From contig NW_025963846.1 in the NCBI RefSeq assembly GCF_023055435.1, positions 14,012,001 through 14,076,000 on the forward strand: a DNA stretch of 64,000 nt, read 5' to 3'. This document shows positions 1-59,052 of the stretch, in pieces. The notes beneath the pieces were generated by a model. It was not told the DNA's origin and ran no database searches. It worked only from the letters and a program-made list of their open reading frames with translations. How positions within the stretch are numbered: the first letter of the stretch is position 1; every line of letters begins with the position of its first letter. The position numbers and the translations under genes were made by a program. Origin of the DNA: Haliotis rufescens. Taxonomy: Eukaryota.

Positions 1-1271
1 TTGACCAGACAATCCAGTGATTGATATCATGAGCATTGATCCACGCAATTGGGATTGATGACATACATCAACCAAGTCAGCCAGCCTGACCACCCGATCC
101 TAATAGTCACCTCTTACGACAAGCATAGTTGCGTTTTACGGCAAGCATGGGTTGCTGAAGACCTATTCCACCCCGCCACTATGAGGTGTAGTGATGCATG
201 TCTGTTTTTAATAAGTAAGCTAATGACATGTCATCAAGCAAGAAACATCGTCGTTTCTGCGATGTAGTATGAGCAGTCTGAGCTCTTGCAGGCTTCCCTC
301 TCAGGCCTCTGGAGTGGTATATGTGCACAATAAGTTTCAATGATCAATGTATCCTATAAGGAAGCTGTATAGAGGCATGACAGCCCAGCTGGTACCCAAC
401 TGTATGTTGTCATGGTAACTACTCCTAAACCAGGAAGTCTTTTGAAATTGGGCTCCATTAGCTATGTAGCAAGGATCTGCGGAACATGGTCAGATTTAGC
501 CGGCCCTAGAACCTTATAATTGGACTTTATTTGGTCCAGATGAGATCAACAAGAAGGAATGTGAGAATCAACTATTGACATTTTGTATCACTTGAGTAAG
601 AAGGTTTTATACTAAGGCACAATGGTGAGGTGGAATGGGGTTTAACGTTGCATTCAAGATTATTGCACTAACATAGCGACCTACATGCACGTGTTTGTGT
701 CTGCTTGTACTAGTCTGGACTAATGCCGATTTTATAGTGTTAGCCTATTGAGATACCATGCCGCAGTCTAACATGAATACCCCATGCAGACACAGTTCAC
801 TGACTTAGAGATGACCCATCCTTTTTTTTCCCCTATGCTGTGCGCCAGGCAGGGTAACATCAAGTACCATCTTTTATCGTCTTTTGGTGTGCCACAATTG
901 GAACTTGTACCTAAGAATGGGGTGTGTGGACTATACACAAGAAAATATTGTAGCACTTCAGTTTAATGTGAGAGAAACGCCAGTGCAGGTCATACACGTT
1001 TACTACTTAAGTGAAACCCCCAAACAAGGGTGTTAGTCATGCCAATGTCATTAACAACCACAGGCATATGCTGGGAAGAACAGACTTCGGATCTTAGTCA
1101 GGGCAGTTCTGGAATACAAACCCTTGATTGGGGTATTCCAACACTGGCTGAGCTAAACTATCATTCAATAATCAAAAATGTCATGCCAGGACTCATTACA
1201 TTTTATGGTGAAGAGGTGATTCAGATGGTGAAAGAGTATTATACTACATGAAGTCTGTCCCTTTCCCTTGT

Positions 1272-4200: not shown

Positions 4201-7200
4201 GTATGACACAGTCCCTGACACAAGTATGACACAGTGCCTGATAGAAGTATGACACAGTACCTGACACAGTCCCTGACACAAGTATGACACAGTGCCTGAT
4301 AGAAGTATGACACAATTATGACACAGTGCCTGATAGAAGTATGACACAAGTATGACACAGTGCCTGATAGAAGTATGACACAGTACCTGACACAGTCCCT
4401 GACACAAGTATGACACAGTCCCTGACAGAAGTATGACACAGTACCTGACACAGTCCCTGACACAAGTATGACACGGTGCCTGATAGAAGTATGACACAAG
4501 TATGACACAGTGCCTGATAGAAGTATGACACAGTACCTGATAGAAGTATGACACAAGTATGACACAGTCCCTGACACAAGTATGACACAGTGCCTGATAG
4601 AAGTATGACACAAGTATGACACAGTGCCTGATAGAAGTATGACACAGTACCTGACACAGTCCCTGACACAAGTATGACACAGTCCCTGACAGAAGTATGA
4701 CACGGTACCTGACAGAAGTATGACACAGTCCCTGACACAAGTATGACACAGTCCCTGACACAAGTATGACACAGTACCTGACACAGTCCCTGACACAAGT
4801 ATGACACAGTACCTGACACAGTACCTGACACAGTCCCTGACACAAGTATGACACAGTACCTGACACAGTCCCTGACACAAGTATGACAAAGTGCCTGACA
4901 GAAACATGATGTAATACCTGACAGTTTCCACAAAGGTTTCCAGCAGGTCTTCGATGGTCAGGTAATCAGTCAGTTTAGCATTGCGCCTGTAGCCCCAGGA
5001 ATAATGGTCAATAGTCATTGCATTCTCCCACTTGTGTTTCTGCAGTACACCTGGAAGAGTCACACACACGAATATTACAACAGGTACTGAGGCTATGCTT
5101 ATATAATCGGTTTGCAGGTCCACTGACTCAGTGGAATCACACTGAACATGCTGAAACGCACTATTATGTTCGTCCTTCTAAATTGTAAACTTACATGTGG
5201 ACTCCCTGAATATATGTGCATATACTATATTACACTGAAGACTGATGAGACTTGCTTATGCTGCACATGGCAATATATTCAGATAACGTTTTGAAGAACA
5301 GAACAAAAGATGCAAAAATAGGTATTTTATTTCTCCTCCAACTTTTGCACACTTTCCATAAACCGTAAAACATTAGGCCACACCCACTGACAGACTACTG
5401 TTCCTTGATTGGCTGATAACAGAATGGGTGGGCCTTGTGTCGCATTATTGCGCTGTATGATGTTGCTGATTTTGTACTGTTGTCTTCCGTTATTTGTGAT
5501 AATTATCAAATAAGCAGTCTGTAGAGTTATTGTTGTTAATGAAATTCTTTAAAAGAATTGACTTCATTTTTGTGTTTATGGAGATATAAAAGTAAAAACC
5601 GGTGTGCACACTTTGTGTAAACCCACTACACGGAGGTACACAGGATGTGATAGCTTTTAACATTAATACCTTCATACACGCAAAATAGGGCTGGGATGGG
5701 TAACTCGGGTACTCGGGTACTCGGGTCGAGTTGGTACTGAGTACAACCCACAGGACTACCCAGACCCATGGTTAGTCATGTGATATATTGTTTAATGACA
5801 AACATTATCTAGAACTCTATGTGGTTACACTACAAGTCACTAATGTTCGCATTTCTTTCTAACTATGCACCCATTCCTTCTGACTTTTATATGTTTGAAT
5901 AAAGATAAAACTTCAGTAAACTTCAGTGTATGCATGAACGATCGTTTTATACATGTATGTACCTAAATAGTTTTGGCCAGGGCTCCGGTCAAACTATTCC
6001 CAGTTGGACATTATCTACCCAACTCTTGAGACCTACAGCAGGTACCCAGGTAGGGTCGGGTAATAGGGGGTGGGTACCCGGGTAGTCAGTTTGGAGTCTT
6101 CCCAGCCCTAATGCCAAACATATAGATGTCAATTTTCTTAAGTGTACATACTAACCCTGTGAGGAGAGTGGTCCAACCTACCTGGATTGTACCTGTCATC
6201 ACAGGTGTAGAACCCTCCGTGGTGACAGTCAGTGCCGCTGCCCCAACGGTCATTAGTCACTACAGTGTCTTTCACTGGGCTAGTGAATAAAAAGGTAGAA
6301 ATGAAATATTCAGTGTATCATTAAATACATTGTGTGTACATTCAAAATATCAAAAACATTTTCTTACAAAGTGCTTGCTCAACCCAAACATCAGCCAACT
6401 CAAGACATGATCAAAACATTATGCAAGTATCAGAGGTGATGGTGTCTCTCTCTTCCTCTGCGTGCGTGTTTTTCAATGCTGAACCCAGCAATATACAAGC
6501 TGCATGGCAGCAGTCAGTAATTAACTGAGTCTGGACCAGACAATCTAGTGATTGAGATCATAAACAATGATCCATATCATTAGGGTATGATGACACATAA
6601 TCAACTAAGTCACCGAGTCTGACCATCCAATCCATTAAGTCGCCTCTTACTACAAGCATAGGTTGCTGGTGACAGATCCCCACGGGGTAAATCTTCCTCT
6701 GCATGGGTTGACATACAATTATTTGGATATATTTATTTGCCAATATCAGTGCCAACCTATTTTAGAAATAATCAAATTTTCGGAATTCTAGTCTCAAATC
6801 AAATTTAATTTATTCACAGAAACAAATTATTTGGCTCTGGAATTTCCTGAAATGCTCAGATCTAAGCAGTGGGAGAAATGGGTTTAACATTAATTTCAAC
6901 AATATGTCAATCATATCACAGCTTGTCATGTTGGAGGAATGCACAAAAGGACGAGGTCTGAGAGGTTTACCATGGACATGATGCTGACAAACCTCGGATC
7001 ATAATAGGGATACAATAAATCTGCAGATCCTGGCACTGCCAAGGGATGGTACTCAGTGTTACAATCTCATTAAAATCAGATCTAAGTTCTCACTGCCGCT
7101 AAACAAAGATCTGAGGACATCCCATTACGGGTTGAACGACCTTTTGTGAACTTTGACCGACCACTGAAACGAATAACGAGAAGTTGATATCAGGCAATGA

Positions 7201-12570: not shown

Positions 12571-14600
12571 CTTGTAAGCATGTGACTATACTTCCTCGTC
12601 ATGTGATCAACTAGTCACGTGTTTTTGCAAACGGGCCAACGCTGGAACACATGCCACGGGGTTATATGGGGGTTGTCTTCTATACAGTAATGTGTGATAA
12701 GGGGTCTGTGAGTGAGTATGGTTTTTCGCCGACTTGAGCAATATGTTAGTGTGTGTGTGAAAAAAAAAGTTAATTGGTCAGCTGATCTGCATTTACAAGA
12801 CTCTATTGTTTGTCGTCGGAGATTTGAAGATTTCAATTTTAAGTGTCAAAAAGATATATTCTCGGAAAATATAAATAAAAAGATAGCATTACTCGGCGAT
12901 GTATACAACGCTTAAATATTGTTCCAGGGGTGGGGGGTACTATACAGCTAAACATGGTTATACGAATCTTCTTCAGCTTTTTCTTAAACGAACAAATACA
13001 GCAGTGAATTTGCTGTGACCTCGCCTTCCAATACTGCCCTGTCACAGTGTCACGGCAGCGTATCAACGGGGACATGTAAATGCTATTGTTCTGTGGTATC
13101 AGCAGTGGACATTGCTTCTGTTGTGTTACAGGAATATCAGACTTTAACACATCTGCGCAGTACTGCAGACACACATCTATGATATCACTTAAGGGTAATG
13201 TACATGTGAAACAATGGGATCAACAGCACAGTGGAGGACAACATTGTGAAGTGATCTATATCTCTATGATTTCTCGTTAGCAACAAAGTTCAGTGTCAAA
13301 TTCCTCATCTTTTTCTTTGAGGAAGATTATGTATTAATGCCGAGAATTCACTGGCTAGCCCTGGGTCTCACGTTAGGGTTGCTACACATTCTGGTGTCCT
13401 AGTATGCTTTACAAATTATTTAACTGCATTCTCCGTTAGTGGAATAAACGTTAACCTTTCTTTCATACCTATGGCCTATCGTCTGATAAAGTCTTATCCC
13501 TACAAGAAAACATTTCCCCTTCTACTGCAGAAAAAGAATCTAGTGAATTTTATTAACTTAACAGCGGTCAGAAGATTTATAAACAGCGAATTTTGTACCC
13601 TAAGTTTAGTACTTGGTAGATTGCACGAAGATTCTGAAGATTAGTAAATATCACTTATCGTAGTATAACCTATTGTAGTATCATTCACTATTTAAACCAC
13701 ACTGTAAAAAATGTGTTAAGAGTATAAACACATACAAGACATATGTAACAAATGTTATATTTGGGATTATCCTTTCTTAGTTAAATCATCTTCTAGTACA
13801 CATTCTAGAACATTTTGGTGGTTGGTCCCGTCCAGGATTCGAACCCTCAGTGTCAGGGTGAGGCACCTAATCGCCAGCACACAAAGTTCGAATCCCGGAC
13901 CGGACTCATCCCCCCAAAGTACTAGAATTTGTACTTTACTACGAAAGTGTAATCCCAAATATAACATTTCTTACATTTGACCACTTTCTAGAAAGCATTG
14001 TGTATTCATAGCTTTCGGCCATGGGAGCCGTGCCAATTTATACATATCGGAAAACAAAGTATGTGATCTTGACTACCAGTTGTTGGGACTTTTATTTTTG
14101 TGAAAGCATTAGTTAGGGTCTAAACACATGAAATGATCTATTAGCTGATAGTCTAAAAACAACATCCTCATAATCCATATAATACCTTTTGTTTTGAATA
14201 TAAACATGTTTTCCATAGCATCTGGCGTCGTCCCGAGGCAAGGGAGTTAACTGACTATAAAAGGTAACACTGGAATTTAAGAGTCAGTTATCTCCCTTGT
14301 TTCGGAAAGTTGATCAACAGGCTTTAAGACAAATATGGATGAGATGTATAATATATATTGAAATTAGATGTTCAAATCAGATTCATAGGCGCTTGCATAA
14401 CACATATACCACCAAGACTTAAACGAATTTGGTCAAATATTCACATAAAAATGTACAAATAAACCAAGCTAATTGTGACTAGGAAAATTGACACTTCTGA
14501 TAACAACAGTCTCCGTAGAACAGGTGGTAGCGTGACGAACTACACATCAAGTACATCAAGAGGTTGCAGGTTCGAATCCAACCGAGCTTGAAAATTCAAT

Positions 14601-14890
14601 GGGGGGCACGGGTGGCCCGTTCGTCTAAGGCGCCGCGATTCGCTGTGCAGAGTCGCGTCCCTTGGGCACGCCAGAAACCTATGATTGTTGGTTCGAATCC
14701 CGGTTCGCCCCGATTATGTTTCTAGGTTTATCAGCACCATACCCATGCTCGCGGGTTTCACCGAAGTGGTAAACGTCTGAGACCTGCATCACTTCGGGCT
14801 TCCCTCCCACATTAAGCTGACACGCCGTGATATAACTGGAATACTGTTAAAAGCGGCGTTAAACCCAACCCACTCACTCACTCACTCACT
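14601..14890 (+). mobile_element. Family C tRNA-derived SINE (~290 bp), inserted into an older tRNA-like SINE head (14510-14600)
   Basis: A-box-like TGGCCCGTTCGTCTAAGGCGCC at 14613, B box GGTTCGAATCC at 14690, (ACTC)n tail, TSD GAAAAT(T)CAAT. Other copies: 9289-9550(-), 40956-41143(-), 44044-44289(-), 45586-45811(+). Confidence 0.9.
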
Positions 14891-15055
14891 GAAAATCAAT
14901 GTGTTGTTACTGTATTCCTAATAGGAAGCTGACAATGACAGTACATCAGATTACTACTTAACCTTTCTAAGTGACGACAGGCCACCTAGTAAAAAATACT
15001 TCCTGATTAGTAAAGTAAGAATAAGATTTATATCAACCATACTCTGTGCATCACT

Positions 15056-15126
15056 TGCTTGATAACGGTGTTAGAACCTACATCGAAACGTCGCACCATA
15101 TTGTAATAAAGAAGTTGTTCATCCAT
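15056..15126 (+). ncRNA. Minimal hammerhead-ribozyme motif (U3-A8 variant) in a Penelope-like pseudo-LTR repeat
   Basis: TGC-TTGATAA-C-GGTGT(tagaacct)ACATC-GAAA-CGTC-GCA: stem I TGC/GCA, stem II, loopless stem III, GUC site. AATAAA at 15105. Confidence 0.7.
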
Positions 15127-16009
15127 CTATCTTTTACTTATCCTTACTTAGTACTCCATCTTCTAAATGCCTCTCAAAGAACTGATCAGTAAAAATCATC
15201 TTACATGTTAGTGTCTCAGTGGACAGTGAAATTCACTAAGTTAGTAAACTTGACTAACTGTTTCAGTCAGTGTGCTCCCGTCATGCTCTCGCGTCAATTG
15301 TCCCACTAATTAAGCTTCCCAGTCTACCCCGCTATAGCGCGGGCGTTCTCCTCATTGTCTCAGCAACATCGTTTTGTCCCACCTTATTCCTTCCCGTTTG
15401 TTGTTCTTGTGGAACCTATATGCAATATTAGTGTTTTACTATAGTGATTTAGGCAAGAGTACAACCCTTTTCATTTTTTATACTGTGTCATTTCTATTTG
15501 CATTACGTACAAATACTTTTTTTTCATAACGCCAATATAAGCATTCTTTTTCTTTTAATACGATGACAAAAAGGAATCAGGTGAGAATCTCATCATGAAA
15601 ACGCACCTCTATCGACTTGAATACATGATACTGTAGTTCATGTATGATACCATGTGCAGGTTACTGTTGAACACTCATTCCAACGTTATTATGCTTATTC
15701 CACGATGACGCTTACACTGTCCTGCTAGTTTTAGCGTCACAGATTTGTTTTCGGGGCGTACATATCCTTGAACTGATATTACCTTCTCTTCAAAGTAGCG
15801 TTAAAGCAAACTCACTCATTTACCTTTATTCCGCCAGCCACCCTGAAACCAAGATTTACGTGTCTATATACTCGCTTGTCTCATACAAACTCCCTGCATT
15901 TATGATATAGGCAAGTTTGATTTTATTTAATTTACTGCCGTGTTTAGTCAAATGTTATTTATATGTTTTTAGTAAAATAATTGTCATGTTTTATCGTTCA
16001 TTAACACTT

Positions 16010-16845: not shown

Positions 16846-19800
16846 ATGGCGGTAACCACAGCCTCGGGAATACCATCGAAATCATGGCAACCTGCACAGT
16901 GTACTCTGGAAACAACGTATGTAGATGGCGGTTTTCTAAGTGAATGTACCAATAACCGATAGTTTGTATTCATGATTCTCATTGATCCATTTGTTTAATC
17001 ACGTAAAATAACAAGGTAAGACCACTGCTAGTAGAATGCTGGTTGATCGACACATGTACCCCCGACACGTTCGGCAGAGTTGTCTCCCCCCCTGGTTGAT
17101 GTGCATGGCTCCTATTAATTTTATTTTACCAAGAAGCGACAAACGAATTTATGGAGCGAGAGAAAATAATTGATTATTTAGCTTAAAGCATATTTTTTCA
17201 GATAATTACCTCCTTTAAGATGCATTAAAAAAACGTTTATTACAACATTGACGGAAAGAAAAGTCATGAATTTCTTTTAAGCATGTTGTGTTTCAGGTGT
17301 TAACAGAGAAATAAGCTTACAAATCCTCATAAGATGCTTAACATTATGAAAGCCACTGACATTCATTTTCCGATGTTTTATAAAAAATATATTTTGCCAG
17401 CCTTTGTCATGTTTGTTGAGCAAACTGCCATGGAATAAAGTGCTAATTTCAGATACCAGTGCCTATATTTAAAAAATAAATAAGGATCAACTGATTTGTT
17501 CATAGACTCATATGTTATTAATGGTTACCAAACTTGTTCAGGAAGTGTTTTGTGACCATGTTGTTTGTATTCCAGGATGGGGACCATCATAGTGGAGCTG
17601 TACTGGAAACATGCACCAAACACTTGCAGGAACTTTGCAGAGCTGTGTAGACGTGGGTACTATAATGGCATCAAGTTCCATCGAATCATCCCAAATTTCA
17701 TGATACAAGGAGGTGATCCCACAGGCACAGGTACAGAGCTTCTTGTCAGTTTGCCAGACCCTGACCATGGTCATTGTGTTTTCTCTTGACTTGACCTTTC
17801 ATGTGGTAGTTCCTTGATACTCATGTCAGTAGTGATGGCAATAAGGTACAATTTCAAGATTGATTATTTGTTTGAAAAAACAATGAATGAGAAATTATTG
17901 ATCGAAAACTGTTTGTGTGTTTGTTGTTTAACGCCGTACTCAGCAATAATCCAGCTATATGACGGCTGTCTGTAAATAATCGAGTCTGGACCAGACAATC
18001 AAGTGATTGACATCATGAGCATCGATCGACGCAATTGGGATAAGATGACATGCATCAACCAAGTCAGTGAGCCTGACCATGCTGACGACCCGATCCCGTT
18101 AGTAATCTCTTATGACAAGGATAAAAAACTGAACAAAAGAAAAGAATGATATGCATTTACTGTGTTATACAGTATCCTTCATGTACATAATAAATACAGA
18201 GGTAGACACTGTTAGCATGGTTAGTCAAATGCAACTAGTCTGCAGCTCATTTCACACTTGTGACTTGAGTAAAATAGCCAGATTTTCATGGAAAACCTTT
18301 TCTACCTTTTCTCAGCCTGTCACCATGGTCAATCTCAGATGAGCCATGCGACACATTCTGTATATCGCTAATATAACTTGTGGTCAGCGATTCTGTGATA
18401 CCGAGGTCATGTGAAGGAGAAACATTTTTGGCATTATCAGAGCTGTGACTACTATATTTGCAAGAATGTATACAATTGATTCTGATTGGACCATTTGTGA
18501 CTTTTAGCCAATGAAGGGCACTGATAGTAAATTGCGACACATAAGGCAATGAAAATCATGACGTTTATTTTCAATAATAGGAGCAGCTATCCTGTGATGT
18601 AAACTGTTATTGACACAGTAAAATAAACCCATCTACATGAATGCACCCCTTGTCCCACTGAGAGTAAATATCATGGGGGGGGTCTGGTAGCCTAGTGGTT
18701 AAAGCATTCGCTCGTCACGCCGAAGACCCGGGTTCGATTCCCGACATAGGTACAATGTGTGAAGCCCATTTCTGGTGTCCCCCGCCGTGATATTGCTGGA
18801 ATATTGCTAAAAGCGGCGTAAAACCATACTCAGTCAGTCAGTCAGTAAATATCATGGACCAGTCGATAAAATATTGCAAGAATCCCGCAAGGCCTTGGCA
18901 GAACTGCCAGGGATCTGACCCAGAATCCATATTGGGCTTCTGTATAAGTCCCATGGGACTAGGACCTACTAAACTCAGGGGCCGGTCGAGTAGAAACATG
19001 ACAAAGGTATACTGTTTCATCGATATTTCTGCTTTTCTTTCAGGCAGAGGTGGGGCGTCCATATATGGAAAATTCTTTGAAGATGAAATATCTGATGAGC
19101 TTAAACATGCAGGTAGGACTAAAGATATCATGCACATAGGAATGTGAGTGTTAATTAAGTAATTCTGGTGTCACATGGTCCTGTTGACAGCGCACAGGTC
19201 ACAATCAGGTGAAGTTATGCAACGTAGGTCGCGGAAAGTAGTTGGATGGGTGACAGTTTTCGTCAGCTTGACTCTAAGCATTTCTAGGGCTTCGTTCCTG
19301 CCCCATAGGATTATTTGTTTGTTGTGTAACGCTGCACTCAGCAATATTACGGCGATATCATGAATATCGACCCTTGCAATTGGGATACGATGCCCTTTTA
19401 GGGCAAGCATTGGTTGCTGAAGACCTATTCTAACCCAGATCTTCACGAGTGTGCCCCAAAGGAAGCAGATGTGGTGTCTCCTAAGGCAAGACTGTTTTGA
19501 AATACATTTGTATATCTCTGATCACCCAGCAGTGAATGGATACCCAGTAGGATGACATGGTAATGTCACTGTTAACCTTTGAAGCACCTCACGGGCAGCT
19601 TGGGTAATATACTCCCCAAGGAGCTGAGAATGAAAATCAGGTCACACTGATCCTTGACCGGGAATAATGTAGTGCTTTTAGCATGCTTTAGAGTGTGGAT
19701 TTGGAGCATTATAAATATGCACATTATTACATTATCAATCCAACTGCAGAATGACTGGAAAATCTGCACTTACAAAATACCACTTTTAGCACATTTGATG

Positions 19801-43200: not shown

Positions 43201-46200
43201 TGTCAGTCACGGGATTGTCTGGTCCAGACTCGATTGTTTACAGACCGCCGTCATATAGCTGGAATATTGCTGAGTGCGGCGTTAAACAACAAACAAACAA
43301 ACAAACAAAACAATCGTTAAAGGTTTCCGTAATTGTTTCTCGTGGCCCACTCCACAAAGTGATCTTAGTGCTATCACTATATCGTAGGTCTATGTGAAAG
43401 ACTGAGCGCGAAGATCGCTGTATGAATGATATGCATACATAATATGTATTTTCTTGTAAGTAAAATGTCATTACTAAAACTAAGTACGGTGCTTGTGCCC
43501 CAGTTGCCGGTGGGTGGAGCGCCTGGACGGAGTGGACCCCAGTTGACGAGTGCCCGGCGCTGTGCGGAGGGGGGAAGGCGGATCTGACCCGCTCCAGGAC
43601 CTGTACCAACCCCTCCCCACAGTATGGCGGAGCGGACTGTGTCGGTCAAGCGACCCAGACTTCCATAATGGGCGACTGCAATGTGGACTCGTGTGCTGGT
43701 AGGTGCATTGTTATACGTCACTTCCGGTCTCGTTGCCATGGGGATGTTATAGTTTAAACTACATGCACCTACCTTAAGGAAGAGAATTTACGGATGTCAA
43801 CTCTTTATTATGAGGAACACAACGTTTCGGAGTATATACTTCATCAGGTGAATACCTACCTTGACCAAAACACATATCACTTTAAATGGTAATTTGCAGT
43901 AAACTTTGAATATAAAATAGACAGCCCTGAACCTGTACAGCGATATAGACAAGATAAGGAACAGAGCGTATCCATTTGCACGTGCAATCCGTGAACTTCA
44001 GCCATGCAGTCGGTATTGTCAAGGTTACAAGACAGCTTGGCATGAGTGCGTGAGTTGGGTTTAGCGCCGCTTTTAACAGAATTATCACGGTGTGTCAGCT
44101 TAATGTGGGAGGAAAGCTCGAAGTGATGCAGGTCTCAGACGTTTACCACTTCGGTGAAACCCACGAGCACGGGTATGGTGCTGACAAATCTAGAAACATA
44201 ATCTGGGCGAACAATCGGAATTGGAACCCACAATCATAGATGTCTGTCGTGCCCAAGGGACGCAACTCTGCACACCCTACGTGCCCCCAGACAGCTTGGA
44301 GAAATAAGTTGACTTCAGTAACTATGTGACCAAAGTATTTTACGTTGTAACACGCCACTTTGAGTTACACTGCAATACTATTGTTCTCCTGTCAGGTTAA
44401 ATCTAATAAACAGGGATGTTATAATAAACCCGGGATTTTAGTAATTCAACTTCTGTTAATATTGTTACATATGAATGTTTCTCGCTAGAAACTTATTTTT
44501 CATTAGAACACAATGTAATGAAAATCAAATGACCAATGTTTTCTTTATATTCCAAAGGATCGAACATGAAACCTTCGTTTCTGTAGCCCAGTGAGTGTAC
44601 ATTTGGCTACAGACGCGCTGATAAATCACAAAGCTTTTAAGAATGTCATTTTCAAGTACCCGTACGCCAGCACCTGATTTTTTACGCCCGTTTAATGGTT
44701 AATGGAAATTATGTTTGAATCATAAAAAAATGTTCATAAATGTTGTTTTAAGTTTCCTTTTTCGGTTTATAAATTAGATAAAACACCTACCCTCGGTTGT
44801 TGTTTTTTGAGACATAAAACCCGAAACCAAGGGATGTGTCCCACTGACATACAACTTCTTTGTTATACTGCAATAGCCACGTTCGGTCTTGCTTAGCAAA
44901 ACGGAGTACATTTTGTAGTAAATTTGATTGTAAATTTCACATAAGGAAAAGCATGTTATCTGTATTTTCTGGCGGTTTGAAATGAAATGACGTTTAGGAC
45001 TATCTGCCCTTGGGCAGAGGTGAGGTTGAAGAGAGAAAAATATGGCGGCAAAAGAACGGCGTCTTGTTGTCTGTGGTGGCCAGAATAATTACAAGATGTA
45101 GAAGACAGGTCCCACAACGCAACACTTGATAACGGTATTAGGGTCTATACCGAAACGTCGCTATTACACTATAATAAGAAGTTGTTATCCAGTTATATTA
45201 CCTTCGTCATCAGACAACTTGAAAGGCTTATGAAACAATTTATACCCGATCAGCTGTAGAGTTTCCGAATGTATGATTATAAAAAATGGCCCTAAACATC
45301 CCCCATAGCCAGCATTACAACATGTTGCGCCAATACGACCAGTGGGCAAGCCCTTGCCCCTCGGCTGTGTTAACCACTAGGGCAGAGTCATACAAATAGG
45401 TCCAGTGGTCATCTTCCCGAGGCAAGAGAGTTAACTGACTATAAAAGTTCAGTGGAAACTGGACTTCTAAAGTCAGTTAACCCCCCTTGCCTCGGGAAGA
45501 TGTTCAGTGGTATGTGCTTTACAATACGTACAAATACATCCAGACAATTACTATACGTCCAATTAATGATACCTTCGAGCGATACCCCCTTGGGCACGCC
45601 AGAAACCTAGGATTGTGGGTTCGAATCCAGGTTCGCCCCGATTATGTTTCTAGGTTTGTCAGCACCATACACGTGCTCGTGGGTTTCACCGAAGTGGTAA
45701 ACGTGTGAGACCTGCATCACTTCGGACTTTCCTCCCGCATTAAGCTGACACGCCGTGATGTAACTGTAATACTGTAAAAAGCGGCCTTAAACCCAACTCA
45801 CTCACTCACTCGTGTGATATCATGATGATTGAAGCATTCGAGAGAAGATGCAGATGTTAATATTGTATCCAATTCTCTGCCTTTGTTTACATCCTTCTTT
45901 GATCTACGGGCTTAACTTATTATCATGTTATAGATAACATCTGTATAGTTCGAGTCGTACTATATTGTATAATTTCTTCATCCTGCTTGCAGATAATAAT
46001 CTGCTATATAATTTTTATCGCATGGGATGCCGTTTCTTGCCAAAGGGCATTGTTCTTATCATTTGGCGTGTTTGTGTTTATCATTTTAAACTGGGTGTGA
46101 TCTTAAATGATAAGCCTGTGTAGTCTCTGTGTTTTATGGCCCGTTCTACCTAATGACCAGGGTCCTGTTGTACAAAGCGATCTTGTCGTTACACCCCAAA

Positions 46201-47707: not shown

Positions 47708-48063
47708 AGAGGAAAAGAGGCTTAGTTAAGATTTCCGTTCCGAACCGAATATATTACCGGTAATCAAAGTAATAATTTGGATAGTTAAATGACTTACCTG
47801 TAATTTTGTCAAATTATGCAGTTTTCCTTCAATTTATGCAATTTTGACCCCCTGAAAATTCACACACACACTTACAAGCTTACTACCCAATGGAAATTGT
47901 GTACAGACACCTCCTTTATGCAATAGAAAAGGCTTAAGGTTTTCAGGGAAATGCGGGAACGAAAGACTTCTTTTTCACCCATGGCCAACTGAGTATACCT
48001 CAAGACGTTAAATTGTTTGATAGGCATTACTTAGGAGTTGATGGTGACAAAGTTAACAATATT

Positions 48064-48128
48064 TGGATAACAACTTCTTTAATACTCTAAAGGCGACGTT
48101 TCGGTATACATCCTTATACCGTTGTCAA
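48064..48128 (-). ncRNA. Minimal hammerhead motif (U3-A8 variant), Penelope-type repeat
   Basis: Reverse complement: TTGACAA-C-GGTATA(aggatg)TATACC-GAAA-CGTC-GCC..TTAAAGAAGTTGTTATCCA. Confidence 0.65.
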
Positions 48129-49328: not shown

Positions 49329-50208
49329 ATAGACCAAATCTGCAAGCCTGACCACAGCCACCCAGAAGTCGCCTCTTACAACCAGATGACTGGAAACCTA
49401 CTCTAACCCGAAATCCCAACGGTGCCTAGGTCACTGGTACGTTCTTCAGACATATGCAGTCACTTATTTCATAAACTGTAAGCCCGCTGGGATCAATGGT
49501 CCAGTTGAGCTGAGAATTTGCCATCTTCAAGGAGTGAGTGAGTGAGTTTGGTTTTACGCCGCTTTTGGCAATATTCCAGCAATATCACAATATTCCAGAA
49601 ATGGGCTTCACACATTGTACCCATGTCGGGAATCGAACCCGGGTCTTCAGCGTAACAAGCGAACGCTTTAACCACTAGGCTACCCGACCGCCCCTTCCAT
49701 CTTCAAGGAGGATAATAAATTCCATTCTGTGGGTACAACATTCAACAGAGTAAGCACACAACACCACTGCAAGTACATTACCACAGGTTTGATGACTACA
49801 AATATATTATAACATACAAGTGTATTTTCCATAATCTTTATTTCCAAATCAAATCATGGGATTGCTTAATGGCTCCTCCTTTTTGGAATCTCAAGTGTCT
49901 CTACAACAAATATTTTGTGCATGTTTTTGATTCGGGAAGGCAACAAAATAAACCTTCCACCAATTATGTAATTGTTTTTCAAATCTACTCAAATACATGC
50001 AAAAGGTTTTCATGACCCTCCCCAGGATTTTATCAGCTATTACTTTACCCTCCCCGATTCTGCATACGTTTTTACATGACCCTCCTGACCTCACATCAGC
50101 TATTACATGACCCTCCCCTGTCAAACGTTTTGTGAACCTCCTTATTCTCTCCCATTCCCATTTCAATAACAAACCAATCCTTAAAGCTGGAAATGTTTAC
50201 ATCAATTC

Positions 50209-52418
50209 TCACCACATAAAGCGTTGAAGTTCATTAGAATCTGGCCAATGGAACGGTTTATACAAAAACATATAAAGTGCTGCTGCATTGATGAAAAGAA
50301 AATACAGTAACTCCAGTACTAAAATAACCTTAGAAGGGGACTGGTCATTGATATTCAATCTCCAAATATAAAACGGAATTACAAAATATCTGAACTCGAG
50401 GAGTTTTTGAGGAACAAGGGTCACAACAAGACACACCCAGAAACACATCCTCCAGATGATGGTCTTATGACTTAATGAGCTGCTAAAGCTGATCAAGGCA
50501 AAACAATACATCGGAACTAACAAAAACTTGACCAGTTCGTGTCGTCTGTAGATCTTCGACCAGACATAAAAAGGGTAGTGACGATTGTCAGCCAGAAGAT
50601 ATTCATGCACGTATGTAAAATTCGAGATCAGGTATGCTGCAGCTACTACAAAAATGCTGACCAAAAAATGATGATTGAAAAGGAATTTGAAAAAATATAT
50701 GATCTTTGATCTGGACATCAAATGCATAAAGCTAAAGACGAGACATGTACTTAGGAAATAAAACACTTGAGGAAAATTAAGACATGCTTGATGATGACTT
50801 CTATCGCCAACCACGATACCATTGTTGATGTAAACAAAGACAACAAATAGCAAAACAATGAACATATAAGGGAGAATAGTTTTTAGGATATTTTGCACAA
50901 AATTAAATAATTTCTTTCGGTCATGTATCAAGGTCTTGCTGAGGCATTTAAAGAGAGGCTTTAGTATGGTCAAAGAATATTTATCAATGCTGTCCTTTCC
51001 TCGGTACTGTTTGCAGTCATCGAGCCATTTAAACACATCTTTCTCACAGGCGATGCCGGCCATGAAGACTACCCAGATGATGTTGGTCTGGCGAAACATG
51101 ATAGCAATGGCGCCGCAGATGGAGGCGGAGACGTGGGCATGGCGGAGGCAGGCGAGGTACATGAGGAGGACCCAGAGGACGGAGCCTGGGTCGGTGTAGT
51201 AGAGGAAGGTGAAGAAGTAGAGAACGGGGTACAGTCCCAGACACAGTCCCTGGAGGGTCTGGGATAGGGAGTCCGTCCTCTGATTCTGAAATGAAAAATA
51301 ATAAAGAACGAGGTAGGCCAAGGTCCTTTATGGGCCACCAGCAATGGTAATTTTCATAAGGTATGAAAAATTACCAGACATGTTAAATTTGCTGAACGCT
51401 TGCATTCTTTCTTACACTTTTACTTCCAACATGATCAAATACCAAGATGAATGTGTTACTACTATATCCCAAGAAAATCAGCTTGGGTAAAAGACTTGCT
51501 CATGTCTGTGTGTGCGTGTTGTGTGTCTGTGCTTGTAATAGTCCGGACTAATGCCAATTTCATAGTGCTAGCTGAGATACAATGCCGCAGGTTAACATTA
51601 GCATTAAAGCCTCTTTCTCTTTGTTGGTCCTGTTGACCATAATATATACACGCCATAACATTAATTAGAACCTTTTTAACATGAATTGGGAAATTTTAAT
51701 TTCCATTTGCAACCTGTTGCTGCAGACGTGGGGCTTAATATCGTCCTCTAAGCAGGTCTGTATAAATCACTGTCCTGAATCAAGGCTAGTGCTACAGCAC
51801 ACAATTACAACCTGCATCAAGGACAGGTAAGGAGGACCTGAATCAAGGCTAGAACTACAGCACACTATTACAACCTGCATCAAGGCCTGGTAAGGGGGAC
51901 CTGAATCAAGGCTAGTGCTACAGCACACTATTACAACCTGCATCAAGGCCTGGTAAGGAGGACCTGAATCAAGGCTAGAACTACAGCACACTATTACAAC
52001 CTACATCAAGGACAAGTAAGGAGGACCTGTATCAAGGCTAGAACTACAGCACACTATTACAACCTGCATCAAGGCCTGGTAAGGGGGACCTGAATCAAGG
52101 CTAGTGCTACAGCACACTATTACAACCTGCATCAAGGACAAGTAAGGAGGACCTGTATCAAGGCTAGAACTACAGCACACTATTACAACCTGCATCAAGG
52201 CCTGGTAAGGGGGACCTGAATCAAGGCTAGTGCTACAGCACCCTATTACAACCTGCATCAAGGACAGGTAAGGAGGACCTGAATCAAGGCTAGAACTACA
52301 GCACACTATTACAACCTGCATCAAGGACAAGTAAGGAGGATCCAATACAAGGGATTTTTCCTCTCAAGCTCAAGGGACTGGGGACCTATCACGCTGATGG
52401 CAGTAGTAGTAGAAGTAC

Positions 52419-56045: not shown

Positions 56046-57807
56046 TAGTGCAGTACGCTGGATGCCATCAAATGTTGCCAATATGTCAATGTTGAAATGT
56101 ATTTTTATCTTTTATTTTCTTGCAAAGAGTGACAAATCAATGACATATTTAGCCCTAATTGAGCTTATATGCATGCATGGTCATGCATTCTGTGTGAAAA
56201 TCCAAGTCGAATTTACTTGTACCAGCATTGTACACTGATCGATATGACTCAAGCGTTATGTAATTGGATGCCAAGACAAATTAAGCGGTTGCCTAGTGAA
56301 ACAGGGATGAGGGGCGTACGCGACCCCAAAACATGTTATACGCTGACCTTTCTTGGCCAAACAAAAAAAAGCAGACAGAGGGATGTGGGGGAGGAGGCTT
56401 TGCGAGACCCGCCCTTAGATTTTATTGATACAATATACAGGAATAAAATAACAATGGAAGTATTTCAGACAAATACGGGAGAAGGTTTATAACCAGGTAC
56501 AATTGTAATGTACATAATTATGTTAACATTTGTTTATGACAATTTCTAGTTTATTTGTTGGTTACTTTAAACAAAACAAAAATTTACTTCCACCTACATT
56601 GGGTATTCGTGTTTCTTTTTCATCATTAAATAAGTAGAGAAACGGGTTCATGTTGAATTTGCCACAGAAACAAATACCAGTAAAGGATTCACTATAAATA
56701 TGTGTGTTTTTTGCTTAACGCCGCACTCAGCAATATTCCAGCTGTATGACGGCGACCTGCAAATAATCGAGTCCAGACCAGACAATCCAGTGATTGACAT
56801 CATGAGCATCGATCTACACTATTGGGATACGGTGACATGCATCAACCAAGTCAGCGACCCTGACCACCCGATCCTGTTAGTCACCTTTTACGACAAGCAA
56901 AGTCGCCTTTTACGATAAGCATTGGTTGCTGGGGACTTATTCTCTACCCGTTTCCTCACGGGTCATATTAAGAAGGTAGTTTCAAAAACTTAATTTTTGT
57001 TGTTGTCGAATGTTGAGTAAATATGTAAGTGTCTAATAGCAAGTAGTTTGAGGAGTATGACCAGACAGAAAACAATAAATTTCTCAAGCATACAACAAGG
57101 AGTGTATATCCTGTTTGTGTTAAGTTTACATGCAGACGCTCCATCGTTTACTTATTTTACTATACAAGCGGTGGTTGATATGTTCTGAGACTCACATAGA
57201 AAGACTTGACAAAAAACTTTTAAATTATTCATTTTTAAACATAGTCCCCTTCCAAACTGATACACGTCAACTGACAACGGCGTTGCATTGATTTTATCCC
57301 AGTTTCGTGGAAGTCCTTCTCTTGATGACCAAAACGTTCTCCCAGCTGCTATGACGTCATCGTTCGAGTCGAAATGGGTTCCGGTTAGAGCTTTCTTTTG
57401 TTTGGGAACAGATGGATGCCTGACGGAGCCAGATCAGGAGAATCATCTAGGTTCTGAAGCTGTTCCAAGCCACACTCTGGCTTGTAGACATCTCTTAGTC
57501 TGAATTTCATCCCCTAATTGCCTAAAAAGCGCAGACTAATATGCCCCGTTGTCAGGCGTTTTGGAAGATATTCTACAATGATATACCACAACGATATTCT
57601 ACAATGATATTCTACAATCACACCCTCGGCAATCCAGAAGCATTCTAGCTGACGTGACAGTCTTTGCTTTCTTTGGTGGTGTTGATGTCATGCGAATGCA
57701 TCCTCTGTTTTCATTGTTTTTTGTACCCAAGTTTCTAACATAGATCCACATAGATCCTTGTATTAATTAAAGAACATTTCTGGATCTGTAAATACAAGAT
57801 ATTGTTC

Positions 57808-57990
57808 TGGATCACAACTTCTTTATTCTGTTATGATGCGACGTTCCGGTATAGATCCTTACACCGCTGTCAAGCACGAGTGAACGTCATAAGGATCTAT
57901 ACCGAAACATCCCATCATAATATAACAAAGAAGTTGTCGTCCATAATAAGATATCTTGTCTTTACTGTTACTTACCAACTTCTAAAAATG
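57808..57990. mobile_element. Inverted pair of Penelope-type pseudo-LTR/hammerhead repeats (degenerate cores)
   Basis: Minus copy 57875-57808 (GTGC-TTGACAG-CGGTGT..ATACC-GGAA-CGTC-GCAT..AATAAAGAAGTTG) lies back-to-back with a plus copy from ~57889 (..AAGGATCTATACCGAAACATC..AAGAAGTTGTCGTCCA..CAACTTCTAAAAATGCC). Confidence 0.6.
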
Positions 57991-59052
57991 CCAATCCGCT
58001 TTAACCAGAGCTAGGATACCACGAGACATGCATTTTGTGCGTTTTTGATCAGATGTCAGAATTAAGCTTTGGAACATGAGCTGATATTTTCTTCGTTGCC
58101 ATTCTAGCTCTGGATAATTTCTGGTATTTCAGACATGACCGGCCTTCCAGGGTTGGGATCGTCTTCAATTTAAGGCCCCCACTGTCAGCTACCCCTCGTC
58201 TCCCTTTTATTTTTAAGCGCTTACGGCGAATATGGTACGTTACTAAAGATATGTTGTTGTTTTTCAATGTGATGATTCACTGATCCTTATATCAACAGCT
58301 AGTGGTCTATTTTGACCTGATTTATGGGCTGTCATGACCAAATCAGTTAGGCCGTTTTGGCACTGCTCCATTTCGTGACTTGCATCTGAATTTAGCACTT
58401 TATCCCATGCCAGTTTGCTTTACAAAGACTGGTAAAATATAAACTTGTTCTGCAAGTACTTGATCACTGAACGTCCCTCGAGTTTGTTGATTTGCCAAAG
58501 GTCACAGACCCTATAACTTTACTGACTTTGTCACAGCGGTAAAATTTGCTCAGTTGACTCAAGTTTTATGGATATAGCTCCATGACATCATGTTATGTCC
58601 ACACAAAACATATAACTAATATTACGCAATTCCGTCTATGTGAAGTTCAGAAGTAACTGTTATCGTAATAATCACATTAACAGTTAACGGGCGGTAGCTT
58701 GAGGCGGTTTGCGCGGCGTGCTTAACGCAAAACCAGTTTTGTTGAACCCAAACAAAACATTACTGGTGATAATGTTTAGAATGCGCGATCACCTTCTGTG
58801 CCTAGCTAACCATACGTCGAGCGATTAGGAGCCCAGTCTTGCTGTTCTTCGATATCGGTTACTCCCCCTTTTTCTTGTGTTGGAATGTCAGGCTTGCAGT
58901 TGCACACGTTCTTGTGATTAGGCGACTGTATGATCGAGGGTGCTCCATAGCTGACATAAATCGATGTTCCTTGTGGCTTCAGTCGAATAAAGTTGGCTAT
59001 TTATTCGACACTTTTAAAATTCAGATTGAGGTGTGAACGAAATCTGGCATCG

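Follow-up and report, generated by a model that had tools for sequence, protein, structure and literature searches.

Minimal type I hammerhead ribozymes are known from metazoan Penelope-like elements (PLEs), including the Cercyon element of S. mansoni, in which the 3-8 pair is U3-A8 (Cervera and De la Pena 2014, PMC4209133; this and the other published systems are compared here on the available portions of the sources). A dedicated descriptor for the S. mansoni U3-A8 hammerheads returned approximately 1,300 matches, mostly single motifs, and these ribozymes were reported to cleave weakly and in multimers only (PMC4209133). Natural U3-A8 covariation has also been reported by Perreault et al., who cite in vitro activity (PMC3088659). 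The hammerhead of D. virilis Penelope has a helix I of 2 bp (PMC4209133), and a start site within the pseudo-LTR (pLTR) is described for the same element (PMC8557442). In Poseidon_Ac from Anolis carolinensis, ribozyme mutants were without effect on in vitro insertion, and the available part of the report records no RNA-seq reads ending at the cut site (Frangieh et al. 2024, PMC11167929). The role of the hammerhead in Penelope elements is a standing question (PMC8557442, PMC11167929).

The motifs analysed here lie in a 64,000-nucleotide stretch of the genome of the abalone Haliotis rufescens (the window). They have in common with the metazoan PLE hammerheads the type I core, the U3-A8 pair, an extra base between positions 9 and 10.1, the G10.1-C11.1 pair, a palindromic loopless stem III, a location in a pLTR and thousands of solo copies (PMC4209133). 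The stems are shorter than in S. mansoni, with 5-6 bp rather than 7-8 bp in stem II and 2 bp rather than 4-5 bp in stem I, the latter as in D. virilis; a further difference from the S. mansoni PLEs, as far as these are described in the available text, is that a TATA box and a poly(A) hexamer bracket the abalone ribozyme (PMC4209133). With Poseidon_Ac the abalone PLEs share a reverse transcriptase (RT) with a C-terminal GIY-YIG endonuclease, two internal RT start sites, a tail of 30-40 nt and uncut RNA as the main template. They differ in the core (C3-G8 in Poseidon_Ac, U3-A8 in abalone), in the start of the ORF (inside the ribozyme in Poseidon_Ac, approximately 105 nt after U3 in abalone) and in the traces of cutting in vivo, of which the available text gives no sign for Poseidon_Ac, whereas abalone has a modest genomic excess at the cut site (PMC11167929). 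Non-LTR retrozymes have the type I hammerhead, the PLE connection and molluscan examples in common with the abalone repeat, but are tandem non-coding units of 150-450 bp with canonical ribozymes, whereas the abalone copies are truncated ends of coding elements (PMC7229834; bioRxiv 10.64898/2026.07.22.740005).

We consider it highly probable that the window motifs are the truncated ends of two protein-coding PLE families, each with a minimal hammerhead of the known U3-A8 type; this ribozyme is predicted to be a weak cutter and likely sits at the very front of the RNA. The U3-A8 variant itself is already known and abalone is a new host, with the proviso that the supplements of PMC4209133 may list molluscs. 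Three things are added: a layout in which promoter, ribozyme and poly(A) hexamer are predicted to follow one another, a genomic hint, modest in size, that cutting takes place, and a well-supported habit of a LINE to insert at a preferred distance behind TATA boxes.

Hammerhead motifs in the window and across copies

Positions in the repeat are numbered from U3 (+1), so that C17 is +34 and the first base past the predicted cut is +35. The preliminary description listed four U3-A8 motifs, and all four were found on reading the sequence, with U3 at 15059(+), 45126(+), 48128(-) and 57873(-); the last, which had been announced as a mutated copy near 57875(-), does carry core substitutions. Every motif is followed by a poly(A)-type hexamer, which is degenerate at 45126, and by a shared purine-rich decamer. 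The wider search allowing U3-A8 that had been recommended was run with a strict pattern and returned 944 + 939 = 1,883 exact matches in the 1.33-Gb genome, with 0 for the reversed control; the four motifs are therefore not chance occurrences. The Rfam scan of the window gave no hammerhead family at E <= 5, in line with the expectation that standard searches miss the variant, although it had not been overlooked, as a U3-A8 descriptor was already published (PMC4209133).

The first minimal type I hammerhead (15056..15095, plus strand), assigned from its sequence, its folding and the features listed in the available part of PMC4209133, has stem I at 15056-58/15093-95, U3 at 15059, A8 at 15064, an extra C at 15066, stem II at 15067-71/15080-84, a loopless self-complementary stem III at 15088-91 and a predicted cut after C17 at 15092. 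A putative poly(A) hexamer of the pLTR follows at 15105..15110(+). The core, stem II and the loopless stem III bear out the minimal type I anatomy proposed for the motifs, and the reading of U3-A8 as a compensatory 3-8 pair also holds, the pair being published for Penelope hammerheads (PMC4209133). The TGC/GCA stem I is indeed 3 bp at 15056, but this is not the family norm. Stem II had been called varied and yet paired; the fourth pair, A-U in family A and G-C in family B, is a real compensatory change, whereas the G-U pair at 15083 is private to the 15056 copy, the family having G-C.

The interval 15056-15126 first given for this element is too short. BLAST to a family B copy (87% over 142 nt), contig cover and alignment define a 5'-truncated family B pLTR stub at approximately 15033..15181(+), from -26 to about +123 relative to U3. 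This stub is without the TATA box of its family and is therefore likely promoterless. An initiator-like motif occupies 15051..15056(+), and the parent element is predicted to start at approximately 15051-15053, as suggested by the TATA spacing and by clustered stub starts and LINE junctions (see below). The PLE ORF opens inside the 3' 'tail', with its start codon and initial codons at 15167..15181(+); the same codons open the ORF in a family B locus (L219) and in three family A loci (L204, L209 and L210).

The remaining U3-A8 motifs of the window are in family A. The copy with U3 at 45126 is an older stub with a U3-A8 hammerhead (45124..45243, plus strand; sequence, BLAST and alignment), and a decayed inverted arm at 44851..44888(-), holding the 3' half of the motif, is probably its partner. 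The stub at 48013..48128(-) begins at U3, without the 5' strand of stem I. Two stubs at 57805..57996 are arranged head to head, on no single strand, in a long palindrome (fold of -78 kcal/mol) whose minus arm is the mutated copy with U3 at 57873. A stub of a third family, C, at 43790..43848(-) has the canonical C3-G8 pair, U17 and a partly deleted stem II. The family C hammerhead repeat, which also occurs at L069, L074, L102 and L140, has an upstream TATA box and has been struck by the LINE described below (L102/L130).

Other features of the window were noted in passing. An uninterrupted open frame of 372 aa at 50209-51327(-) matches DIE2/ALG10 (E = 3.6e-89), and an exon-sized alpha-L-fucosidase match lies beside a low-complexity repeat at approximately 4900-5060(-). 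A 36-bp minisatellite of more than 100 copies runs from 32057 for approximately 4 kb. The tRNA-like heads at 18687-18745(+), 49618-49689(-) and approximately 14520-14720 are probably SINEs.

The anatomy across copies was taken from 85 distinct motif copies in fetched loci, with a stem II of 4 bp as a filter. The loci were fetched with U3-A8 patterns, and the counts are therefore uninformative on the genomic frequency of C3-G8. In these preselected loci U3-A8 is present in 84/85 copies; the extra base between 9 and 10.1 and the G10.1-C11.1 pair are found in 85/85, with at least 4 bp in stem II as set by the filter. Stem I has 2 bp in 60/83 and 3 bp in 8/83 of the family A and B copies from the fetched loci, unlike the helix I of 4-5 bp of the S. 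mansoni type. All seven copies that were folded have a dimer-compatible four-base palindrome as stem III. Beyond the abalone genome, metagenome contigs hold at least 122 further U3-A8 hammerhead stretches in many unrelated families, with stems I and II covarying. Two additional pairings were considered and rejected, namely a conserved 'lock' hairpin and an extended stem I in which the first RNA bases pair with the purine-rich decamer; for neither is pairing kept up across subfamilies by compensatory change.

Protein-coding families A and B

The strict matches that were listed split into two sequence families, A and B, with the 15056 copy in family B. Among the first 30 matches, the shared repeat has variable 5' ends and its longer copies enter a GIY-YIG-type reading frame; such frames stop approximately 170 nt before the motif. 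An RT frame of 723 aa precedes the family A motif in L084 and one of 601 aa precedes the family B motif in L081, and the frames of the two families are 57% identical. The PLE frames match RVT_1 above the Pfam gathering score. The GIY-YIG profile match (E = 5.7e-4) is below the gathering score; the motif was recognized by eye, and the endonuclease is spanned by an alignment of the family A protein, annotated as an uncharacterised H. rufescens protein, with an 836-aa A. carolinensis protein (36% identity over 726 aligned residues) that the search output does not name Poseidon. By eye, the translations from L081 and L084 have the CCHH motif and lack the CX2-5CxxC linker, the combination expected of endonuclease-bearing (EN+) Penelope/Poseidon PLEs (PMC8557442).

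Downstream of the motif, the tail, the ATG and the ORF are colinear in L204, L209, L210 and L219, and no intron separates ribozyme and ORF in these four copies. The order of the element is thus ORF, 3'UTR, TATA box (-38), hammerhead, poly(A) hexamer, tail, start codon and ORF. The two junctions were seen in different copies; no intact pLTR-ORF-pLTR copy was found, the longest frames (723 and 601 aa) are without the N-terminus, and tblastn detected no PLE ORF inside the window. The association with Penelope-like elements that was originally suspected is therefore upheld by RT and GIY-YIG frames that run into the same repeat, and the search for an RT and GIY-YIG partner sharing the pLTR ended in coding families A and B.

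The same evidence bears on the classification of the repeat, which had been taken for a non-autonomous or retrozyme-like family, i.e. a small non-coding hammerhead repeat with a circular RNA that is served by a PLE in trans. Most copies are short and non-coding, as such a family would have them, and one 169-nt tandem unit does derive from the element, though without the ribozyme core (see below). However, no fixed monomer and no tandem 150-450-bp units each with a hammerhead occur among the 30 sampled copies, the sole array found being without a core, and the repeat is contiguous with the PLE ORF on both sides, its varied 5' ends entering the GIY-YIG and RT frames and its 3' ends the start of the ORF. 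The retrozyme-like reading is largely refuted and we regard it as very improbable; the repeat represents truncated ends of protein-coding PLEs.

The shape of the stubs fits this origin. In the 30 sampled copies, 3' ends fall at +78..87 (9/30) and at +115..130 (17/30), in clusters approximately 35 nt apart, and an inverted arm is present in 15/30, three pairs being the two arms of one insertion. Such 3' ends and inverted arms are the published insertion anatomy of endonuclease-bearing PLEs (PMC8557442, PMC11167929). The RT would start inside the RNA at about +85 or +120 and copy backwards, as Poseidon_Ac does in vitro, and from either end of the RNA it may fold back or jump. The stubs themselves are dead passengers.

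Promoter layout and the genomic trace of cutting

A TATA box is present at -38/-36 in 12/30 sampled copies, from three families with differing spacers; in one further sampled copy it is shifted by an internal duplication, and in the remainder this part has been lost by truncation or altered by mutation. At -8..-6 there is an initiator-like motif; the poly(A) hexamer is found approximately 12 nt past the predicted cut site. Among the 26 stubs with a resolved 5' end (4/30 were unresolved), 11 begin at -10..0. The TATA box 38 nt before the core and these clustered starts together indicate that the RNA likely begins just before the ribozyme. LINE target duplications end close by, at -7..-12, in 13/30 loci (counting loci where both were seen). 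Pol II would accordingly be expected to start at about -8..-6, and the ribozyme is predicted, from these sequence landmarks, to lie at the capped front of the transcript within an LTR-like R region. Of three small-RNA runs, two yielded 0 reads and one yielded 4, and RNA ends are not visible in contig runs. A literature search turned up nothing on a TATA promoter of this kind in Penelope. The TATA-hammerhead-poly(A) layout is not general outside the abalone genome: for the U3-A8 motifs on metagenome contigs, a TATA-type hexamer occurs at -39..-42 in only 5/69 among the matches listed.

If the RNA is cut at the predicted site, its cDNA is expected to yield copies that begin exactly at +35. For family B there are 45 matches to a boundary at +35, and 28 of the 30 examined (23 distinct) are without the core; at the two control positions used, +31 gave 8 matches (6 without the core) and +37 gave 27 (11 without the core). 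As the +35 set includes approximately 7/30 fold-backs and 9 members of a single group on contig C90, a cautious estimate of the excess is two- to three-fold. For family A, 71 matches span +31..+42, and +35 is the mode in 30 scripted loci, with 5/20 distinct core-less rows. When all 71 were inspected by eye, 9 were at +35 compared with approximately 3 per neighbouring base (p about 0.004-0.01); leaving out three overlap fold-backs raises p to about 0.08-0.14. These three of the nine family A cases, and several in family B, share a 2-nt self-complementary overlap and could form without cutting. Overall, copies that start at the scissile bond are two to four times commoner than copies that start at its neighbours, a modest hint that the hammerhead may cut in vivo.

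On contig C90, at least ten copies of a 169-nt unit with its first base exactly at +35 are arrayed in tandem, and the same junction recurs in another subfamily on contig C1. The unit runs from the predicted cut site to approximately +203 in the PLE ORF and occurs as the tandem array and as partial tandems at C90:23.61 Mb (L476-L481), C90:26.3 Mb (L482-L484) and C1:65.84 Mb (L467). It holds both RT start sites and no ribozyme core, and could be a copied circle or the product of repeated end-to-end jumps.

In the seven copies that were folded, a hammerhead-compatible monomer fold lies 0-12 kcal/mol above the minimum, so that help from a second copy or from the ORF protein is likely needed for cleavage, as for Poseidon_Ac (PMC11167929, available part). 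We picture most templates as uncut: their cDNA would pass the intact core and often end at the capped end of the RNA, giving short stubs such as those in the window. A minority of templates would be cut after C17, as a dimer or with the help of the protein, giving copies that start at +35.

Alternatively, the PLE origin could stand with a catalytically silent hammerhead that is retained for protein binding or as a signal for folding, the +35 starts then arising by fold-back microhomology or RT pausing. The 2-bp stem I is compatible with silence, as are a competing hairpin, predicted by folding for families A and B, in which both the poly(A) hexamer and the cut site are hidden, the origin of the majority of genomic copies from uncut RNA and the dispensability of the ribozyme in vitro in Poseidon_Ac (PMC11167929, available part). 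However, in many unrelated families covariation extends over the whole core, the 3-8 pair and both stems, I and II, and the competing hairpin is not preserved by compensatory change in subfamilies B2 and B3. Pausing at stem I would favour +37, yet core-less copies are fewer at +37 than at +35, and the +35 junctions at L467 and L476-L484 are clean and without microhomology. We therefore judge a silent hammerhead to be unlikely. For a hammerhead that cuts occasionally, its place 6-8 bases behind the cap and the genomic trace suggest a role, in which a capped mRNA would be turned into an uncapped and likely untranslated template.

TATA-relative insertion of an RNase H-bearing LINE

LINEs of the I group have an ORF1 and an ORF2 encoding an apurinic endonuclease (APE), an RT and an RNase H, a short tandem tail and a target duplication. 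The element that has inserted next to the abalone ribozymes is an RNase H-bearing, I-group-like LINE: the full element of 6.58 kb has an ORF1 (with no Pfam match), an ORF2 with APE, RT and RNase H matches in Pfam, a short tandem tail and duplications of 9-13 bp. In L081, for example, an RT-RNase H LINE is associated with a 12-bp duplication at -18..-7. Genome-wide, 72 LINE 3' ends have a ribozyme core within 18-48 nt downstream and the reversed control gave 0; by hand estimate, fewer than one such adjacency is expected by chance even for an assumed 30,000 core motifs in the genome. The LINE lengths differ among 30 LINE-ribozyme loci, 13 of which have, within 1.5 kb, a 7-13-bp duplication ending at -7..-12 and a TATA box upstream. 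The differing lengths and the duplications point to independent insertions into genomic PLE copies and, with the LINE 5' junction 28-34 nt behind the TATA box, the promoter has repeatedly been split from the ribozyme.

These junctions might instead be chimeras, formed when the PLE RT jumps onto LINE RNA, or copies of one amplified composite. Some loci do lack upstream PLE sequence within 1.5 kb, and L158-L160 are tandem duplicates. Against this, the PLE 3'UTR resumes upstream with a 7-13-bp duplication, the LINE copies vary in length between 68 bp and the full element, PLEs of three to four families have been struck, and the same spacing is seen at non-PLE sites. A chimeric or composite origin is accordingly hardly credible, and independent insertion is the preferred explanation. 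Specificity for the ribozyme was also rejected: approximately 4% or fewer of the LINE ends lie directly before a ribozyme (72, against a total of 1,913 obtained with a longer pattern), and the spacing keeps to the TATA box.

The target was described from contig C1, on which 98 distinct LINE ends were selected by 3' sequence alone. An exact duplication of at least 8 bp (mode 11) is present in 51/98; the 47/98 without one were left out. A strict TATA box lies 28-34 nt before the LINE 5' junction in 22/51 of the duplication-bearing sites and is missing from 29/51; outside PLEs it is found at -34..-28 in 16/41 sites. The background is 0.4% per control window (36 windows), and no site had the box on the reverse strand only. 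The position window was set after the first sites had been seen; the loci fetched later (L228-L277, 28 sites) have the TATA box in 11/28 by hand count, two of them sharing a target family. In a TATA-selected search, 49/66 rows fall in 4/15 allowed spacings (hand count, duplicates included). Only 3/13 long LINE copies have a TATA box, and no clear initiator signal emerged at the non-PLE junctions. A TATA-relative insertion habit of this LINE is thus well supported, as a partial preference that concerns about 4 in 10 sites. In the open-access literature we found nothing relevant on a non-LTR element directed to a TATA box or a start site.

Dictyostelium TRE5-A and yeast Ty3 are position-specific retroelements that are guided by transcription factors to Pol III genes. 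The abalone LINE resembles them in its fixed distance and orientation to a promoter element with little sequence consensus at the nick, and is unlike them in bearing an RNase H (I-group-like), in using Pol II-type TATA boxes and in the partial nature of its preference (about 4 in 10 sites). The analogy suggests that TBP or the Pol II pre-initiation complex may guide it. A second possibility is that the LINE reads the shape or sequence of the DNA directly, its endonuclease or ORF1 protein binding bendable AT-rich, TATA-like DNA and nicking at a fixed distance without transcription factors. A protein alone can set a fixed distance, the LINE sites are TATA matches rather than verified host promoters, and many targets are dead PLE stubs that are perhaps not active promoters. 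Three observations speak against direct reading, which we regard as possible though short of probable: the polarity is strictly one-stranded, the targets show the T/A pattern of a TATA box and are not simply rich in AT, and the 5' junction lies at the distance of a canonical start site.

The guided alternative can be extended to a model of the whole system, which we put forward tentatively. In it, TBP or the pre-initiation complex would bring an active LINE to the core promoters of Pol II, where the LINE would set its 5' end at the start site of the host and make use of the TATA box; its insertions would map the Penelope start to the front edge of the hammerhead; and the hammerhead would cut in vivo, so that part of the Penelope RNA would lose its cap and first 40 bases and copies starting at the scissile bond would be left behind. 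Were the transcription machinery to guide it, the LINE would tag promoters naturally and would give rise to regulatory mutations in abalone.

The LINE gave 559 first-look candidates and many 100% identical ORF1 matches; nearly identical long copies in such numbers, in the hundreds, point to recent activity. In front of the ribozyme, the same spot is also occupied by other LINE 3' ends whose tails differ (L011/L012, L046, L088 and L092), so that several related LINE families may share the habit. Many copies consist of only approximately 67 nt and the tail, and all of these break off at one point next to a G+C-rich inverted repeat (L098-L117, TATA-selected rows). The full-length LINE (L418-L446 and L447-L466) opens with an initiator-like pentamer, and 3/20 long copies lie in PLE pLTRs.
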